From Cyanobacteriota bacterium (lineage in GTDB: Bacteria; Cyanobacteriota; Cyanobacteriia; Cyanobacteriales; Nostocaceae): a DNA stretch of 64,000 nucleotides. Both the position numbers and the translations under genes were made by a program. The DNA is taken from contig JBJOKS010000022.1 in assembly GCA_046045965.1 (NCBI GenBank), positions 32,001-96,000 on the forward strand, in the 5' to 3' direction. Below are positions 8,521 to 32,340 of this stretch, one piece after another. The notes under the pieces are model-generated. The model was not told the DNA's origin, made no database searches, and was given only the letters and a program-made list of their open reading frames with translations. The first letter of the stretch is position 1; every line of letters begins with the position of its first letter.

Positions 8521-9951
8521 ATGACACTACAAAGCTTTGGTGTGATTGGATTAGCCGTTATGGGCGAGAATATCGCTCTCAACGTTGAGCGCAATGGCTT
8601 CCCAATTGCAGTTTACAACCGTTCTCGCGAGAAAACCGATGCCTTCATGGCGCAACGCGCTGGAGGACGGAATGTGGTTGCAGCCTTTACCTTAGAAGAA
8701 TTCGTTGCTGCACTAGAACGTCCCCGCAAAATTCTAGTGATGGTACAAGCTGGTAAGCCTGTTGATGCGGTAATTCAACAGCTTAAGCCTTTACTGCAAG
8801 AGGGTGACATCATTATTGATGGTGGTAACTCTTGGTTTGAAGATACCGAAAGACGGACTCAGGAATTAGAACCCACAGGTTTACGCTACATCGGTATGGG
8901 TGTGAGTGGTGGTGAAGAAGGTGCGCTGAATGGTCCTTCTTTGATGCCTGGTGGTACAAAAAGTTCCTATGAGTACCTATCCCCCATTTTCAACAAAATC
9001 GCTGCTCAAGTTGATGATGGTCCTTGTGTAACTTACATTGGTCCGGGTGGTTCTGGACACTATGTAAAAATGGTTCACAACGGCATTGAGTACGGCGATA
9101 TGCAGTTAATTGCAGAAGCCTACGATTTGCTGAAAAATGTCGGTGGTTTAAATGCTGCACAGCTACATGAAGTATTTGCTGAGTGGAATAAAACCGACGA
9201 ACTCAATTCATTTTTGATTGAGATTACAGCCAATATTTTCCCCTACGTTGACCCAGAAACTAAGAAACCCTTGGTTGATTTGATTGTTGACGCTGCGGGA
9301 CAAAAAGGCACCGGTCGTTGGACTGTACAAACTGCTTTGGAATTAGGCGTTGCTATTCCTACAATTACTGCTGCTGTTAATTCCCGGATTCTCTCTTCGA
9401 TTAGAGATGAACGGATTGCAGCATCTAAACAATTAACTGGTCCTGTTCCTGCTCAGTTTAAGGATACTAAGACTTTCGTGAACATGGTGCGTGATGCACT
9501 TTATTGTTCCAAAATCTGTTCTTATGCTCAAGGTATGGCGTTGATATCTACAGCTTCTACCACCTATAATTGGGGTCTAAATCTGGGTGAAATGGCTCGA
9601 ATTTGGAAGGGTGGTTGTATTATTCGCGCTGGTTTCTTGAACAAGATTAAGAAGGCGTTTGACGAAAATCCAGCATTACCTAACTTGTTGTTAGCACCTG
9701 AATTTAAGCAAACAATTCTGGATAGACAAGCTGCTTGGCGGGAAATAATTGTGACTGCTGCTAAGATGGGTATTCCTGTTCCAGCTTTTAGTGCTTCTCT
9801 TGATTATTTCGATAGCTACCGTCGGGAACGTTTACCTCAAAACTTGACTCAAGCACAACGCGACTATTTCGGCGCTCACACCTACAAACGTACTGATAAA
9901 GAAGGAACTTTCCACACTGAATGGGTTCCTATCGCTGAAGCTAAGAAGTAA
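8521..9951 (+). CDS. gnd: 6-phosphogluconate dehydrogenase (decarboxylating)
   Basis: GVIGLAVMG, YVKMVHNGIEYGDMQ, QAQRDYFGAHTY. Confidence 0.98.
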   Translation: MTLQSFGVIGLAVMGENIALNVERNGFPIAVYNRSREKTDAFMAQRAGGRNVVAAFTLEEFVAALERPRKILVMVQAGKPVDAVIQQLKPLLQEGDIIIDGGNSWFEDTERRTQELEPTGLRYIGMGVSGGEEGALNGPSLMPGGTKSSYEYLSPIFNKIAAQVDDGPCVTYIGPGGSGHYVKMVHNGIEYGDMQLIAEAYDLLKNVGGLNAAQLHEVFAEWNKTDELNSFLIEITANIFPYVDPETKKPLVDLIVDAAGQKGTGRWTVQTALELGVAIPTITAAVNSRILSSIRDERIAASKQLTGPVPAQFKDTKTFVNMVRDALYCSKICSYAQGMALISTASTTYNWGLNLGEMARIWKGGCIIRAGFLNKIKKAFDENPALPNLLLAPEFKQTILDRQAAWREIIVTAAKMGIPVPAFSASLDYFDSYRRERLPQNLTQAQRDYFGAHTYKRTDKEGTFHTEWVPIAEAKK

Positions 9952-10009
9952 ATTGCATCTGGTTAAGCTTTCAAGTTAGTTCTTGCTGTTTATTTTGGCA
10001 AAATTGCCT

Positions 10010-10033
10010 GTAGGGGCGGGGTTTACCCGCCCT
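10010..10033 (+). repeat. GTAG-type REP-like palindrome / gnd terminator
   Basis: GTAGGGGCGGGGTTTACCCGCCCT hairpin. Confidence 0.65.
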
Positions 10034-10050
10034 TAATTGTAAGATATTTA

Positions 10051-10080
10051 TTGAATTTAGCTCAAAAGCTATGCTATAAT
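10051..10080 (+). promoter_or_regulatory. Sigma70-type promoter for the tRNA-like RNA
   Basis: TTGAAT (10051-56), 18-nt spacer, extended -10 TGcTATAAT (10072-80). Confidence 0.7.
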
Positions 10081-10097
10081 TTTCAAAAAAATATCAT

Positions 10098-10379
10098 GCG
10101 GGGATAGCAGGTGTCTATGCTTTCCCAAAAGCTTCGTAATAAAGGTTCTTCTGGAAGTTTTCAATGGCTGTTCAACAGTGCAAGAGTTGTCCTCTTTCTT
10201 CGTGAACATTAAGGATAGTCTTATGATTGCACCTGTTATATACGTTATTGTCGGTTCATGCGGGGTAGCGTTGCTGCGGAGGTCTGGTGACTACCCAAAT
10301 GTACTGAAAGCAGTGCTGGAAGCTAAAAGAAATTCCTGTCGAAGAGTCAACGCTGGGGGTTCGATTCCTCCACCCCGCA
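10098..10379 (+). ncRNA. Putative structured tRNA-like non-coding RNA (not a canonical tRNA)
   Basis: Acceptor-like stem GCGGGGT(10260-66)/ACCCCGC(10372-78) plus A; T-arm GGGGG-TTCGATT-CCTCC (10355-71); stem AGCGTTG/CAACGCT; upstream stem ATAGCAGGTG(10104-13)/CACCTGTTAT(10230-39); own promoter. Confidence 0.7.
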
Positions 10380-10452
10380 CTTTCCATAACATACCTGTAA
10401 AATAGAAGGTTGGGCTAACTAAAGTAAAACCAATAACCTTGCAAGAATGATT

Positions 10453-10502
10453 AAATACGTTAGAATAAGAGATGTATTGCGATATTTAACAATAGTGAAA
10501 TA
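10453..10502 (+). repeat. 50-bp direct repeat, left copy flanking the ATPase-nuclease cassette
   Basis: 42/50 identical to 13091-13140 by manual alignment. Confidence 0.85.
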
Positions 10503-10587
10503 CATATATAAGGTAAAATAATTAAGCAACAATAGCAATAATATTGTCATTAAAAATCAAAAATGATCTCATAAACATAAAAAAGCT

Positions 10588-12039
10588 ATGTATATACGAA
10601 AAATTGAAATTAAAAATCTGTGGGGAAATGATTTTTTATGGACACTCAATGAAGATGTAAATGTTTTGATTGGCAAAAATGGTTCAGGAAAATCAACAAT
10701 ATTACGAATGCTTCATGAAGCAGTATTGCCTGTTGAAGATAGCAAATTAAACTTTAGGTTATTTGACCCCATTGATGAAATAATTATCGAGTTAGAAGAT
10801 GATATTGTCGTCAGAGTTAATAGTGAAAGTAGAAGTATAACGGCAAACAAAGAAATTACTAATTATAAACTGAATATAAACTTTATTAATACTTTTGATG
10901 TCGTTGAAAACGGGTTAAGCTCAGATACCACATTACTTGACTACCAACTTAATAAATTAAAATACGAGTTTGTTACTTATCAAAGAGATTTATCTAATCA
11001 AGTAGAGGAAGAATTTAAAATTAATTTTAAAACAAATAATATTAATGATCAAGCATCAAGAAAAAATCAATTAGATAAAATTGAATCTATCTATGAAACT
11101 AAAAATAAATTCATTAAGATATTAAATCAACTATTTTCTGAGACAGAAAAGAAATTTGATGAAAAGGAATTTCATTTTTTAAAAGAAGGCATACAAACAC
11201 CCATATTACCAGAGGATTTATCATCTGGAGAAAAACAGATATTGATTATTTTATTAACAACATTACTTCAAGATGCCAAAGATTATATATTGTTAATGGA
11301 TGAACCAGAAATATCCGTGCATATTGATTGGCAAAGGAGTTTAATAGCAAATATAAGAGAGATAAATCCAAATTGTCAAATTATTCTTACCACTCATTCA
11401 CCGACTGTTTGGTATCAAGGTTGGATTGAAGAAGTTACGCACATAGAAGATATTCAGTCAACTTCAGATTTAGTAACAGAAAGTACAATTCTCAAAGAAA
11501 AAACTGATCAATTAGGAGAGCGTGTAGAAGAAATAAAAGATATTTTTAGTGGCTTTTCAGGCAACAATTTACGTAAACTTTATCAATTTAATCGCAAAAT
11601 TAATGAATATACTTTATTTACAAAAGATGAATGCCTTCAATTGTTGAAATTTCTAAAAGAAAACAAGATTTATCCTGATGTCATCACATTTACTACTCTT
11701 ATTTCCAAACTCACTAATTATCAAGATGCTAAAGATATTTTCGATTTAATGGAAGCAGAAACTTATAGTAAATCATCTCATGTCAAGCCTAATGATATAA
11801 CTCTTAATACTTTGATCAAAAAAGTCAGTGGAGTTGAAGAAGGTATTGAACTTATTCAAAACATAAATGAAAACATGGAATTGCGTCCTGATATTATCAC
11901 TTTTAGCACGTTGCTTGGGAAAGCAAGAAATATGGATGAGATTACATTTCTTGAAGATGCACGAACTTACTATGGAATTAAAGCAAATAATATATACTTA
12001 AATAAATTAGCTTTTAAGGGGTTTCAGGGAGGACGATAA
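10588..12039 (+). CDS. ABC/AAA_21-type ATPase (PARIS AriA-like) with C-terminal PPR repeats
   Basis: Walker A GKNGSGKS, signature LSSGEKQ, Walker B LLMDEPE, TTHSP; C-terminal PDVITFTTLI / PNDITLNTLI / PDIITFSTLL repeats. Confidence 0.88.
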   Translation: MYIRKIEIKNLWGNDFLWTLNEDVNVLIGKNGSGKSTILRMLHEAVLPVEDSKLNFRLFDPIDEIIIELEDDIVVRVNSESRSITANKEITNYKLNINFINTFDVVENGLSSDTTLLDYQLNKLKYEFVTYQRDLSNQVEEEFKINFKTNNINDQASRKNQLDKIESIYETKNKFIKILNQLFSETEKKFDEKEFHFLKEGIQTPILPEDLSSGEKQILIILLTTLLQDAKDYILLMDEPEISVHIDWQRSLIANIREINPNCQIILTTHSPTVWYQGWIEEVTHIEDIQSTSDLVTESTILKEKTDQLGERVEEIKDIFSGFSGNNLRKLYQFNRKINEYTLFTKDECLQLLKFLKENKIYPDVITFTTLISKLTNYQDAKDIFDLMEAETYSKSSHVKPNDITLNTLIKKVSGVEEGIELIQNINENMELRPDIITFSTLLGKARNMDEITFLEDARTYYGIKANNIYLNKLAFKGFQGGR

Positions 12040-12042
12040 GTA

Positions 12043-13044
12043 ATGAATTTGTATGAAGTAGCTGCCCAAAGAATGCAAGAAGAAGCTCGCTAAAAAAGGT
12101 GTGAAATTTCTGTATTGGTTGAAGATGTTTATGATGAAGAATTTTGGAGACTTATTATTGAAAATGTTAAACCGAATTTAAGAAATAAAATTTATTTCCC
12201 ATATCCCAGTAAGAAAGGAACACGCGGAAAAGATACTTTAAAAAAGTTTAGAGAGTTCGTTAATAAAAAATTTATTATTTGTATTGATAGTGATTGCGAA
12301 TACTTGTACGATAATAATGTTTGGTATATCGCTGACTATATTTACCATACAGTTGTTTATAGTAAAGAAAACTTTCAGTGTAATCATTTTTCATTAAATG
12401 AAATATGCAAAAGTTTAACCACAGAAAACTATGATTTTAGCAGTTTACTTGAAAATATTTCCCGAAGAGTTTCTCCTCTATTTTACGTTTGGTTCTACTT
12501 TAAAGAAATCAACTACAATAATGTTGAGCATCTTATAAATAATGAAGCATTTGCAAGAATTTTAAATTTTCAAGATAGTCAATTCGACAATATTGGAGAT
12601 GAAAATATCTTATTTCAAAATATTGAAGATAGAGTGAAAAATATATTACAAAATCTAAAAAATGTCATGGACAATGATAGTTGGTATGAATCAATATTTA
12701 CAATTGATATTCCTAATATACAAAATCGGTTAATAGAACAATACTCAATACATCCAGAAGATATTTTATCATTTTGCTGTGGACATGGTGTATTAGACCA
12801 ATTTGTTGAACCTTTTATGAGAAAACTCATTACAATATTAAAGAATTTAAAAATAGAAGAAGTAAAACAGGCTTTAAGTGAAGACAAAAATATTGATAAC
12901 ACAATTAGTCGTATCGAAAATATTGCCAGACGAGACATTAAGACTATGTTAAACACCAGTTTAATATATCTCCTTCTTTATAATGCTGTCGAAAATCAAC
13001 AGATGCAAGAAATTAAAGACAAACTAGCTAGAGAACTGAACTAG
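12043..13044 (+). pseudogene. DUF4435/TOPRIM nuclease (PARIS AriB-like) with in-frame TAA at codon 17
   Basis: ATG at 12043 after GGAGG; MNLYEVAAQRMQEEAR*KRCEISVLVEDVYDEEFW continues in frame into the 12115 ORF; motifs VEDxxDxxFW, ICIDSD, HTxxYSKEN, GH. Confidence 0.8.
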
Positions 13045-13090
13045 TGCGATCGTAAAGCGCATCTGCAAGCAGATCGCCCTTAGTTAATGG

Positions 13091-13140
13091 AAATACGTTA
13101 AGATAAGGGATGTAGTGCGGTGTTTAATAATAGTAAAATA
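13091..13140 (+). repeat. 50-bp direct repeat, right copy
   Basis: 42/50 identical to 10453-10502. Confidence 0.85.
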
Positions 13141-13257
13141 TGACAAATCAAGAGTTTTTAAAAGTAGGAATCTTAAAAATGTATCAAAAGGTGGAGATAA
13201 AGTGAAAAGATTCTATCTTTAATTGGATATAGCTTCTGTCTTTAGGGACATTAAACA

Positions 13258-13512
13258 ATGCTGAAAAAGATTAATTCTATAATCTCCAAAAATACTGAAA
13301 TTTTTCAAAAAATAACAGATGAACAAGCAGCTTTTATTAGTGGTGGTATGGAGATACCTGTAGCTCCTGATATACCTTCTATACCTTATGATGTTGGTGA
13401 GCTAACACCTCAAATTCCTAATCTTCCTAATCTTCCGGTTGATCTGCTTAATTCTGTTCCTACTACTTTTCCACTTGATATGAGTTCTTTTGGAGTTCCC
13501 GTAACTGTTTAA
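13258..13512 (+). CDS. Small double-glycine-leader peptide (bacteriocin/RiPP precursor-like)
   Basis: Leader IFQKITDEQAAFISGG followed by a Pro-rich 54-aa core. Confidence 0.65.
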   Translation: MLKKINSIISKNTEIFQKITDEQAAFISGGMEIPVAPDIPSIPYDVGELTPQIPNLPNLPVDLLNSVPTTFPLDMSSFGVPVTV

Positions 13513-13561
13513 ATTTTGCTCCAGCATTAATTTTAGCAACTTACAAAATTTTCAAAAAAGT

Positions 13562-13592
13562 AAACCATCTCACTTGTGTTGATGGTTTTTTT
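13562..13592 (+). terminator. Rho-independent terminator
   Basis: AAACCATC...GATGGTTT followed by a T-run. Confidence 0.65.
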
Positions 13593-13782
13593 ACTTGGCT
13601 TTTTTTACTTGGTAGTTTTTAGTTTTTGTAGGTTGGGTTAAGCAATAGCGTTTAGTTGTAACCTGCATAAATTTTTCCTGATAAATACACTAGCTATCAG
13701 CATTCAGAAGTAAGCTTTTTAACGGTTAAGCTAAAAACTTTATAAAGAAAAGCATTTCTGATACAAACCAGAATAAAAATAA

Positions 13783-14931
13783 TCAACCATTCCCCAAAAA
13801 CTTAGCCTTCATCTCCTCCAATTCTTTATCTACAGCATCGTTATTATTAGGATTATTAGTAGAAACAGAAGATTGTGGTGTCACATTTTGCGGTTGCACC
13901 TTACCACCAGTAAACTGTGTTTTTAATTCCAATAATTCCTTCTCAAGTTGACTAGGAGTTTGAGGAACAACAGCAGGTGGAGAAATAGGAGATTTTTGTT
14001 TAACAGGTTGATTAATAATTGTGGGTGGGATAACTGCGGGAGATTGAATATTTAAATTATTATTTAAATCTTTAAGAACTGCATCAGTTGTTTGATAACG
14101 CTGACTAGGGATAGTTTCTACCATTTTGTCAATAATATTACCCAATTCCTTACTAACCGGACTTTTCAAATATTGTCGCCATACCCAAGCAGCGTTATGG
14201 GTATCATAACTATCAAAAGGCGATCGCACTGTTAACAAATTAATACAAGTTACCCCTAAACTATAAATATCACTGGCAAAAATTGCCCTTCCTCGCATTT
14301 GTTCTGGTGCAACATATTCAGGACTACCAATACTCGTACCTGTGCGATTTAAAGCCTCACCTGCGGTAGATTTTGCCGCTCCAAAATCAACAATTACTAG
14401 TTTATGATCACTACCCCGACGAATAATATTTTCTGGTTTAATATCTCGATGAATTACTTGTTTACCATGACAAAATTGCAACACAGGTAATAAATCATTT
14501 AATAATTGTCGAATCTGAATTTCATTAAAAGCACCTCTATTTGCTAATTCCTGAGCCAAATTTAGCCCATCAATAAATTCTTGGACTAAATACTGTCTGT
14601 CATCTTGAGTACAATAAGCCAACAGTGCGGGAATTTGCGGATGTTGTCCCAAATCATCCAACTGTACTGCTTCCTGGTTAAATAACTCTATCGCTTTTTG
14701 TACCGTATTTGTACCTTGAGCTTGGGGAAAAAATTGCTTAATTACACAGGTAGGTTTTGAGGGTTTATCCTCATCCACCGCTAAAAAAGTTCTCCCAAAA
14801 CCACCTTGTCCAATGGGTTTAATAGCGCGGTAACGTTCTTTTAACAGTAACTTAGTACCGCAAGTTAGACAAAACTTGACATCATCAGGGTTTTCCGGTT
14901 TAGAACAATGGGGGTTAAGACAGTAACTCAT
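13783..14931 (-). CDS. Ser/Thr protein kinase with N-terminal 4-Cys motif
   Basis: MSYCLNPHC..CLTCG, GQGGFG, HRDIKPEN, DFG, APE. Confidence 0.95.
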   Translation of the reverse strand: MSYCLNPHCSKPENPDDVKFCLTCGTKLLLKERYRAIKPIGQGGFGRTFLAVDEDKPSKPTCVIKQFFPQAQGTNTVQKAIELFNQEAVQLDDLGQHPQIPALLAYCTQDDRQYLVQEFIDGLNLAQELANRGAFNEIQIRQLLNDLLPVLQFCHGKQVIHRDIKPENIIRRGSDHKLVIVDFGAAKSTAGEALNRTGTSIGSPEYVAPEQMRGRAIFASDIYSLGVTCINLLTVRSPFDSYDTHNAAWVWRQYLKSPVSKELGNIIDKMVETIPSQRYQTTDAVLKDLNNNLNIQSPAVIPPTIINQPVKQKSPISPPAVVPQTPSQLEKELLELKTQFTGGKVQPQNVTPQSSVSTNNPNNNDAVDKELEEMKAKFLGNG

Positions 14932-30609: not shown

Positions 30610-32340
30610 ATGAAAACAAGGGTTGCACCAGCCGTTGTCATACTGGGACAAAATAGTATCGCAGTAGCCAGGCAAATTATCAGAATTTTACCAGGGGCGA
30701 AGTTATACGGTTTAGCAAGTCGCACCTGTGATGTTGATGCGAGTTATACGAATTTTGGCGATACACTGCGGGAGTTTTTTGCTGCGGGAACACCTATAAT
30801 TGGCATTTGTGCGGCTGGGATTCTCATTAGAACTTTAGCACCACTGATTACAGATAAAAGTCAAGAACCACCAGTATTGGCTGTAGCCGAAGATGGGAGT
30901 GCAGTTGTCCCGCTTTTAGGTGGACTAAGTGGGGTAAATGAATTAGCACGGCAAATAGCAGAAGCTTTAAATGTCCAAGCTGCAATTACAACTACAGGAG
31001 ATTTGCGTTTTCGCACAACGTTGTTATCTCCTCCTCCTGGATATTATTTAGCTAACCCAGAAGATGGGAAAAAATTTATAGCAGACTTATTAGCAGGAGC
31101 AAAAGTTAAATTAGTAGGAACAGCACCTTGGTTAAGTGAAAGTAACTTACCCATTGATGATGATGGTGAGTTAACCATTCAAGTGACAGAAAAAGAGGTG
31201 ATTTCTCAACCTAACTGTTTAGTTTATCATCCCAAAAAAGTTGCGATCGCCATCACTACCCCCAATTCAGAAACACTTAGCCACATTTACGAACTACTAG
31301 AAGACGCACAGGTTTCACCCAAAACAGTCGCAGTCATCCTTGCACCTCTCTACCTAGCTACTAACTCCATACTCCAAAATATTGCCAATATTTTTAAAGT
31401 ACCAAATCGGTTTTTCAAAGCCAGTCAACTAACAGAATTTACCATACAAGGATACAGTTTCCACGAAGCAGTTGTTTTTGCAGGTACAGAACCAAATAAC
31501 AAATCTTTGTGTTCTGCATTTTCCCACATTACTTTGAGCATTTCTCCCCAAATTATCGACCCTGAAACCATCGGACAACCACAGGGAAAATTAGCCATCA
31601 TTGGTACAGGACCTGGTGCATCAAAATGGATGTCACCCGAAGTTAAAGAAATTCTCAATCATGCTACAGATTTAGTAGGTTATAAAACTTATATCAATTT
31701 AATTGGTGCTTTAGCTGAAGGTAAAAAAATTCATGAATCTGATAACAGAGAAGAAGAAACACGGGCAAAAATGGCCTTAGACTTAGCCGCAGAGGGTAAA
31801 TATGTAGCGGTAGTTTCTTCAGGAGACCCCGGTATTTATGCAATGGCCACCGCAGTTTTTGAAGTCATAGATAAATATAATCAACCAGAATGGCAAACTA
31901 TTGATATTCAAGTAGCCCCTGGTATTTCTGCTATGCAAGCCACCGCAGCAGCTATTGGCGCACCTTTAGGACATGACTTTTGTGTAATTTCGCTTTCTGA
32001 CATTTTGAAACCTTGGGAAATTATCGCCCAACGCATCACAAACGCAGCCCAAGGTGATTTTGTTATAGCATTTTATAACCCTGTTTCTAAAGAACGCACT
32101 TGGCAATTAGCAGAAGCTAAAAATATCTTGCTACAGCATAGAAAACCAGATACACCAGTAATATTAGGGTGGAATATTGGCAGACCAGGACAAACTGTAA
32201 AAGTCATCACCCTCGAACAATTAGAACCAATAGAAGCCGATATGCGAACTTTAATTATTATCGGTTCTTCTCAAACGCGGAAAATTGAAACCAGTGAAAA
32301 AAATATACGGGTTTATACACCACGCCGTTATAATTCGTAA
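30610..32340 (+). CDS. cobJ: CbiG N-terminal domain fused to precorrin-3B C17-methyltransferase
   Basis: AAGILIRTLAP...VPLLGG (CbiG); SSGDPGIYAM, GHDFCVISLSD, YTPRRY (CobJ). Confidence 0.92.
   Translation: MKTRVAPAVVILGQNSIAVARQIIRILPGAKLYGLASRTCDVDASYTNFGDTLREFFAAGTPIIGICAAGILIRTLAPLITDKSQEPPVLAVAEDGSAVVPLLGGLSGVNELARQIAEALNVQAAITTTGDLRFRTTLLSPPPGYYLANPEDGKKFIADLLAGAKVKLVGTAPWLSESNLPIDDDGELTIQVTEKEVISQPNCLVYHPKKVAIAITTPNSETLSHIYELLEDAQVSPKTVAVILAPLYLATNSILQNIANIFKVPNRFFKASQLTEFTIQGYSFHEAVVFAGTEPNNKSLCSAFSHITLSISPQIIDPETIGQPQGKLAIIGTGPGASKWMSPEVKEILNHATDLVGYKTYINLIGALAEGKKIHESDNREEETRAKMALDLAAEGKYVAVVSSGDPGIYAMATAVFEVIDKYNQPEWQTIDIQVAPGISAMQATAAAIGAPLGHDFCVISLSDILKPWEIIAQRITNAAQGDFVIAFYNPVSKERTWQLAEAKNILLQHRKPDTPVILGWNIGRPGQTVKVITLEQLEPIEADMRTLIIIGSSQTRKIETSEKNIRVYTPRRYNS

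Follow-up and report, generated by a model that had tools for sequence, protein, structure and literature searches.

A tRNA-like structured RNA and a PARIS gene pair with a pentatricopeptide-repeat ATPase are probably independent neighbours downstream of gnd in a Nostocaceae cyanobacterium

Organisation of the locus

The window analysed here, 64,000 nucleotides (nt) of contig JBJOKS010000022.1 from a Cyanobacteriota bacterium of the Nostocaceae (positions 32,001 to 96,000 of the contig; assembly GCA_046045965.1), carries a small structured RNA gene and, directly behind it, ariA and ariB, the ATPase and nuclease genes of a predicted PARIS anti-phage system. These are most probably two independent elements that occupy the same variable hotspot, bounded by gnd and a Ser/Thr kinase gene, as neighbours and not as partners. 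A preliminary description, made from the letters alone, had reported a promoter, a structured region, the ATPase gene and, 3 bp on, the nuclease gene in AT-rich DNA lacking HIP1 sites, all of which are in place, and had proposed that the RNA is a component of the defence system. The features are listed below, numbered from the first letter of the window.

8521 to 9951: gnd; the gene ends in a hairpin
10051 to 10080, + strand: promoter block of the small RNA, TTGAAT-18-TATAAT with a TG extension (10 of 12 consensus matches)
10092 to 10097: second -10-like hexamer, TATCAT, just 5′ of the observed RNA start
10105 to 10380 (3′ end approximate), + strand: discrete structured small RNA, ~275 nt (metatranscriptome contigs, covariation)
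10223 to 10288, + strand: putative small open reading frame (ORF) within the RNA (conservation of AAGGA and ATG)
10439 to 10466, + strand: promoter-like site before ariA, TTGCAA-16-TAGAAT (consensus match alone)
10453 to 10502, + strand: left copy of direct repeat D1, 50 nt (84% identity to the right copy)
10588 to 12039, + strand: ariA, 483 amino acids (aa) (Pfam, PADLOC, model)
12043 to 13044, + strand: ariB (DUF4435/TOPRIM), with its ATG at 12043 after a 3-bp spacer behind the ariA stop codon and TAA at codon 17 (12091-12093) (Pfam, PADLOC)
13091 to 13140, + strand: right copy of D1; a decayed antitoxin gene start follows from 13133

Distribution of the RNA and of the PARIS genes

BLAST searches of 401 genomes of the order revealed the RNA in nine, and a covariance model covering part of the RNA found it in 8 of 151 genomes of the family, to which G009 is added from the first search. 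An exact-pattern scan yielded nine metagenome contigs, seven of them from one population. The RNA is single-copy in the window genome. The occurrences fall into 13 distinct contexts, only one of which contains AriA/AriB (tblastn within 5-6 kb):

gnd, RNA, PARIS: G000 (the window genome), G002, L035/G451
gnd, RNA, antitoxin-like gene, Uma2: G267 and seven metagenome contigs
VapBC, RNA, Uma2: G037
leucine-rich repeat (LRR) kinase, RNA, NYN-like gene: G208
DUF29, RNA, AbiL/HEC-01-like ATPase with DUF4276: G172
HigB, RNA, DUF1688: G240
S41 peptidase, RNA, unknown gene: G397
AraC, RNA, PDC-S32: G009
RNA 3′ domain only, XisH, Septu PtuAB: G159
two ParDE-flanked RNA copies (two contexts): G496
two further metagenome contexts: L120, L122

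The RNA is always located in toxin-antitoxin or defence islands, and the alignment shows that its promoter block accompanies it into other genomic contexts. No common protein partner beside the RNA was revealed by an all-against-all BLASTP of 11 neighbouring proteins. In G159 (L033:7898-8029) the 3′ domain is found alone, matching the whole length of the model at 68.8 bits; the 5′ part differs there, and XisH and Septu PtuA/PtuB lie nearby. The RNA of G172 (L030:8396-10715) is divergent from an AbiL/HEC-01-like ATPase gene with DUF4276 (OLD-like TOPRIM), a second ATPase-TOPRIM pair beside the RNA, in another genus.

Seen from the side of PARIS, the RNA is present at 3 of the 11 loci (the window and ten others) that encode AriB together with an AriA bearing a C-terminal pentatricopeptide repeat (PPR) domain (AriA-PPR), and all three are linked to gnd. 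The preliminary description had proposed a covariance-model check for the RNA upstream of such ATPases; among the ten other loci, nhmmer and covariance model R1 detected it only in L035 (Sphaerospermopsis aphanizomenoides BCCUSP55) and L036, which is the same locus as G002 (Anabaena sp. UHCC 0451). At the AriA-PPR loci away from gnd both methods gave zero of seven, three of these having less than 200 nt upstream of ariA. No Rfam RNA was found upstream of ariA at the other AriA-PPR loci, and the tRNAs near two of eight of them are incidental (1.3-1.8 kb downstream, on the opposite strand).

The two elements also occur separately at gnd itself. In G267 the RNA follows gnd (97.7% identical, vs 86.6% for the gnd 3′ end) and PARIS is absent, and the seven metagenome contigs are alike. 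In Anabaena sp. 54 (L034), PARIS lies 318 bp after gnd and both the RNA body and D1 are absent. The RNA is thus found after gnd in relatives lacking PARIS, and AriA-PPR is found elsewhere lacking the RNA, which are observations that the preliminary description had named as speaking against its own proposal. The gnd site of G001, G003 and G018 holds other cargo. In G001 a 433-aa ORF (L018:5030-6331) fills the slot of the RNA; it has no Pfam match and only weak PADLOC PDC-S11 matches.

The two D1 copies (10453-10502 and 13091-13140) bracket ariAB alone and leave the RNA outside. In relatives without PARIS, D1 lies directly 5′ of an antitoxin gene, of which only the first codons (MTNQEF...) remain in the window, at 13133-13180; G001, G002 and G003 have this 80-aa gene in full, and in G001 it is succeeded by a PIN toxin gene. 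The position of D1 around ariAB only, together with the antitoxin start at 13133, indicates that the cassette entered downstream of a pre-existing RNA gene, which makes the RNA and PARIS neighbours and not partners.

AriA combines a short ABC ATPase with a PPR domain

Residues 2-290 of AriA match the PADLOC AriA profile PDLC04164 (E-value (E) 6e-52) and Pfam AAA_21 (E 1e-24), and residues 1-290 constitute a short-type ABC ATPase of the AAA_15/AAA_21 type. Its Walker A, signature, Walker B and H-loop motifs are all intact, and the motifs G29-N-G-x-G-K35, L-S-S-G-E-K-Q (211-217), D-E-P-E (238-241) and T-H-S (269-271) are invariant in the alignment. An AlphaFold model built with 18 homologues (predicted local distance difference test score 84.7) consists of the ABC ATPase, a short coiled-coil insertion and then 11 helices over residues 300-476. 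The top Foldseek match of the model is E. coli AriA (8ux9_B, E 3e-9), with PtuA ranking behind. The ariB frame matches Pfam DUF4435 (E 1e-15) and PADLOC AriB (E 5e-28); E. coli AriB was not recovered by a sequence search of the PDB. As judged from these profiles and the predicted fold, ariA and ariB are a PARIS pair, as had been proposed; the family assignment holds despite the TAA in ariB, and activity in this strain is doubtful.

The PPR fusion reported for the ATPase was borne out. Over residues 347-412 three Pfam families exceed their curated cut-offs, namely PPR_2 (31.9 bits, cut-off 30), PPR_3 (29.8, cut-off 25) and PPR_1 (28.3, cut-off 23.8), and residues ~300-476 form a predicted alpha-solenoid of three to four P-type PPR repeats. 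A profile of the AriA-PPR family searched against the PDB matched designer PPR proteins (E 8e-87) and maize PPR10 (5e-21) over positions 339-464, and E. coli AriA aligned to the ATPase part of the profile only. The alignment contains three clear P-type repeat starts with partial repeats on both sides, conserved from cyanobacteria to Bacteroidia, the starts following the pattern P-D/N-x-I-T-F/L-x-T-L. By sequence criteria the C-terminal domain of AriA is therefore a genuine PPR domain. The PPR module is the classic sequence-specific reader of single-stranded RNA and, to our knowledge, every characterised PPR tract binds RNA; the AriA domain would be expected to bind single-stranded RNA as well. 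Application of the two-residue PPR code to the repeats gave roughly U-A-U-A, a result that was set aside as too short.

Among the 120 best homologues listed (database clusters), 97 have PPR Pfam matches, at lengths of ~448-485 aa, and the cluster names include Nostocales, Microcoleus, Desulfobacterales, Pseudomonadota and Bacteroidia. In species-representative genomes the long form of AriA (448-483 aa where intact) was found at ten loci, with AriB directly 3′ at all ten (one partial). At 70 other loci, mostly of gut Bacteroidales, AriA has 263-353 aa and no PPR domain, and an AriB tblastn match is present at 61 of them. Sequence comparisons thus place AriA-PPR in a widespread and distinct PARIS clade, with a short ABC core, a C-terminal PPR domain and AriB always next to it.

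With PARIS of E. coli B185 (PDB 8ux9, 8v45-8v49) the window system shares an ABC ATPase gene followed by a DUF4435/TOPRIM nuclease gene in one operon, the closest structural match of its ATPase model, and a catalytic Glu at the equivalent N-terminal position (E26 there, PMC11464382, partial text; E27 here). It differs in the architecture of the ATPase, whose fold in E. coli spans 464 aa with long helical insertions and no PPR domain, whereas the window AriA has a core of ~290 aa, a short coiled coil and a PPR solenoid of ~180 aa; the two are ~18% identical. The short-AriA PARIS of gut Bacteroidales (PDLC04164/PDLC04165 type) has the same compact ATPase core, 35-40% identical over residues 2-289, with AriB downstream, but its AriA, at 263-353 aa, is without the C-terminal PPR domain. 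No paper joining 'pentatricopeptide' with 'DUF4435' was found (Krishnan et al. 2020, on ABC ATPases in conflict systems, might mention the architecture), and in the PARIS literature searched 'pentatricopeptide' never occurs; the view that a PARIS with a PPR domain is undescribed agrees with the PARIS and DUF4435 literature searched. PPR domains fused to HNH nucleases have been noted in immunity contexts (PMC12738770, partial text).

The nuclease gene is interrupted in the window genome

Codon 17 of ariB is TAA in the window; in G002, of the same genus, it is CAA and the encoded AriB is intact (332 aa). Glu27 and Asp82-Ser-Asp84 are invariant in ten sequences and are retained 3′ of the TAA in the window copy. 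In E. coli AriB the counterpart of Glu27 is E26, and mutants at this residue are inactive (PMC11464382). Were translation to resume at the TTG at 12115, the product would still contain Glu27 but would lack the strand before it, the first of the fold. A working PARIS was taken to need both frames intact, and the window copy is broken at ariB codon 17. This nonsense codon most likely inactivates the effector in this genome, which has one DUF4435 gene, and the CAA-to-TAA change has probably left the window system inactive. The mirror of this defect is seen in L035 (L035:5001-6443), where ariA has an in-frame stop at codon 39 and ariB is intact. In L034 both genes are open. Of the four gnd-linked PARIS copies, two are thus defective, one in ariB and one in ariA.

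The RNA is a discrete transcript with a tRNA-like half

Expression was examined in four metatranscriptome runs (X1-X4) from four studies, as assembled contigs with one depth figure per contig. A 294-nt contig of X2 (depth 700) covers 10105-10377, and an Illumina adapter is joined to it immediately before 10105; X3 and X4 contigs begin one position later, at 10106. In X1, a contig covering 10163-10385 has a depth of 70.7, the adjoining contig (10384-10620) one of 3.5, and ariA/ariB depths of 0-5. One X2 contig, from another strain, diverges to other sequence right after 10380. Over the metatranscriptomes the RNA contigs are 20 to more than 200 times deeper than the ariA contigs; contigs of this kind speak to presence and boundaries. 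The RNA is a discrete, abundant transcript of ~275 nt with its own promoter, separate from ariAB.

The 3′ domain (10260-10379, 120 nt) adopts the same stand-alone fold in nine homologues taken from searches of whole genomes, with an acceptor stem of 7 bp, a second helix stacked against this stem, an inner hairpin and a T arm with the loop UUCGAUU. In an 11-sequence alignment of this domain 99.1% of cells are paired and four base pairs have substitutions in both strands, a level that none of 500 shuffles reached. RNAalifold applied to nine full-length sequences predicted long-range helices from the 5′ domain to the interior of the 3′ domain, as well as helices covering the Shine-Dalgarno sequence and the AUG; in this set 95.8% of cells pair and seven pairs (14 cells) change on both sides. 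Since the 5′-domain and 3′-domain helix sets cross, the RNA would form either a pseudoknot or alternative folds. The covariation supports a minihelix that mimics the acceptor/T-arm half of a tRNA. The earlier call of a tRNA-like non-coding RNA was accordingly upheld in part: the RNA is expressed and its acceptor/T-arm half is tRNA-like, but D and anticodon arms are missing and ARAGORN found no genes in the window.

Rfam searches returned chance-level matches only, both over 9000-14500 (E up to 1) and over 10085-10395 (E up to 10): sucA-II, a small nucleolar RNA, a long non-coding RNA and a 17-nt T arm at 9.5 bits. A tRNA was rejected on the lack of D and anticodon arms, the negative ARAGORN result and an Rfam match confined to the T-arm fragment. 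Likewise, transfer-messenger RNA (tmRNA) was rejected because the acceptor 5′ strand is internal (10260) and ARAGORN and Rfam were negative. Like the tRNA-like domain of tmRNA and acceptor/T-arm minihelices, the 3′ domain has an acceptor stem of 7 bp that stacks on a T arm whose T loop is canonical, and a helix that leaves the acceptor stem directly where a D arm would be. It is unlike tmRNA in that the acceptor 5′ strand lies 155 nt from the RNA 5′ end, CCA is not encoded (the trailer is CUU) and no tag frame is conserved in the 3′ domain, the alignment having been checked by eye. Retron-type control was rejected as no reverse transcriptase ORF lies by the RNA in the window, and among its neighbours at 12 other loci no reverse-transcriptase Pfam match was found. 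A literature search for a tRNA-like small RNA in Nostoc or Anabaena returned nothing pertinent. The RNA is a candidate for a new structured RNA family, absent from Rfam.

Composition and further features of the hotspot

The G+C content is 24-33% over 10450-13150 vs ~40-48% in gnd. The window contains 41 HIP1 sites, one per 1.6 kb on average, and none between 7383 and 14219. As chance predicts ~2 sites in 3.1 kb, the absence of HIP1 alone is weak evidence; the HIP1-free stretch of 6.8 kb reaches past the AT-rich cassette into gnd. The hairpin block 3′ of gnd (~9998-10040) is a dispersed short repeat, with 14-15 matching sites in each of G006 and G024 (Nostocales). The ORFs near the RNA are gnd, ariA, ariB, a small peptide gene and the kinase gene. 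An 84-aa ORF (13258-13512, + strand), present in the same place in G001 and G018, encodes a double-glycine-type leader (ending ...ISGG) and has zero Pfam matches; it may specify a bacteriocin- or RiPP-like (ribosomally synthesised and post-translationally modified peptide) precursor.

Discussion

That the RNA is a third PARIS component, a decoy, antitoxin or trigger read by the PPR domain of AriA, was the proposal of the preliminary description and is extremely improbable. It draws on the adjacency and co-orientation in G000, G002 and L035, on PPR domains being RNA binders by family, on the promoter block kept before ariA in L034 and on a precedent for an ATPase-nuclease that degrades tRNA under the control of a non-coding RNA, Retron-Eco7 with PtuAB (PMC12673091, partial text). 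Yet PARIS occupies one of 13 RNA contexts, the RNA is at none of the seven AriA-PPR loci away from gnd, ariA and ariB of L034 are intact without the RNA body, and the three co-occurrences represent one inherited arrangement among close relatives. The RNA moreover lies outside the D1-bracketed cassette and has no anticodon arm; as the anticodon stem-loop is the element bound by E. coli AriB (PMC11464382), a tRNA decoy would be without structural basis. The type I-A retrons with Septu PtuAB (Retron-Eco7/Ec78), the nearest described case, are like such a three-part system in combining an ABC-type ATPase and a nuclease, control by a structured non-coding RNA and a tRNA target. They need a reverse transcriptase and an msr-msd RNA, whereas the window RNA has no reverse transcriptase nearby and does not co-occur with its ATPase family. 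Adjacency within a hotspot is not evidence of partnership.

Several observations nevertheless weigh against complete independence. The RNA is co-oriented with and adjacent to PARIS at three of the four gnd-linked loci. L034 retains a copy of the RNA promoter block (31/35 identical) 84 nt before ariA, where it may drive ariAB, and no intrinsic terminator was found between the RNA and ariA; the RNA promoter could therefore contribute to ariAB transcription, and the low-depth contig spanning 10384-10620 makes some read-through into ariA possible. The metatranscriptome contigs do not give strand or true level. The TAA of ariB may be an assembly error; no metatranscriptome contig was obtained over 12080-12481, hence this codon is uncovered by read data. 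Finally, 3 of 13 RNA contexts hold a pair of AAA_21-type ATPase and nuclease (PARIS, AbiL/HEC-01-like, Septu). This is well above the random expectation of ~1.3% of sites with such an ATPase gene within 2 kb (~17 full-length in the 5.3 Mb of this genome), a comparison in which a functional link and an effect of the islands are confounded. The presence of the RNA beside these three systems in three lineages, together with the ariAB promoter question, is the basis for a more general reading, in which the RNA is a new tRNA-like class of defence and toxin-antitoxin islands that modulates tRNA-directed ATPase-nuclease systems, for example as an antidote or buffer on the nuclease or sensor until infection, and in which the PPR domain reads this RNA or phage RNA; we consider this very improbable.

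If the RNA is an element of its own, it would appear to move by itself among the toxin-antitoxin and defence islands of Nostocales. We tentatively regard it as a stable RNA, regulatory or dual-function, to which the minihelix would lend tRNA-type end processing and stability. It is unlikely that the RNA is mainly the mRNA of a small hydrophobic peptide with a core of ~22 aa, type I toxin-like or a small membrane protein, whose translation is gated by 5′ folds. Such a peptide would account for the selfish, island-hopping distribution of the RNA, which is found among VapBC, HigB and ParDE toxin-antitoxin genes. All nine full-length homologues have AAGGA and ATG unchanged, 7 nt apart; the region of the start codon is paired with a strand 5′ of it (ten pairs, 96.7% of cells paired), the Shine-Dalgarno sequence sitting in a hairpin; and the ORF has an in-frame 6-nt insertion in G009 and four synonymous changes in G397. 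However, the conservation of the ORF at 10223 is limited to ~22 hydrophobic codons ending in two arginines, beyond which neither frame nor stop position is conserved (22 to ~100 codons). Its 3′ half is nearly invariant in nucleotides, third positions too, as explained by the acceptor and P2 helices, and the codons that do vary make up a 3-bp hairpin in which both strands change. An antisense partner was not identified, and the sole antisense promoter-like site faces away from the RNA. The RNA has the small hydrophobic ORF, sequestered ribosome-binding site, long-range 5′-3′ pairing and mobile-island location of type I toxin mRNAs (hok-like, aapA-like), but differs from them in the lack of a detected antisense RNA, the unconserved ORF end and a tRNA-like 3′ domain foreign to the class.

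For the PARIS pair, phage-triggered release of AriB and tRNA cleavage are known from E. coli PARIS only, as far as the partial text of PMC11464382 goes. By analogy, AriA oligomers would hold AriB inactive until a phage cue frees it, and freed AriB would cut tRNA, upon which translation would stop. The PPR solenoid most likely adds a sensor or recruitment surface for single-stranded RNA, to judge from its repeats. It is possible, if rather doubtful, that the repeats are instead a protein-protein scaffold, for AriB docking or capture of a trigger protein, and that the clade works like classical PARIS. E. coli PARIS detects proteins, Ocr among them, and its surfaces for sensing show little conservation from one clade to another (PMC11464382). 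Three to four repeats would also offer little RNA sequence specificity, but the AriA repeats fit P-type PPR profiles far better than anything else. A complex prediction for AriB with the PPR domain (residues 296-483) scored 0.00, which bears neither way.

The tRNA-like minihelix and the island-hopping spread of the RNA make it worth a study of its own. PARIS has so far been shown to sense acidic phage proteins, and the presence of a PPR-bearing sensor in a widespread clade suggests that some PARIS systems may sense or recruit RNA.

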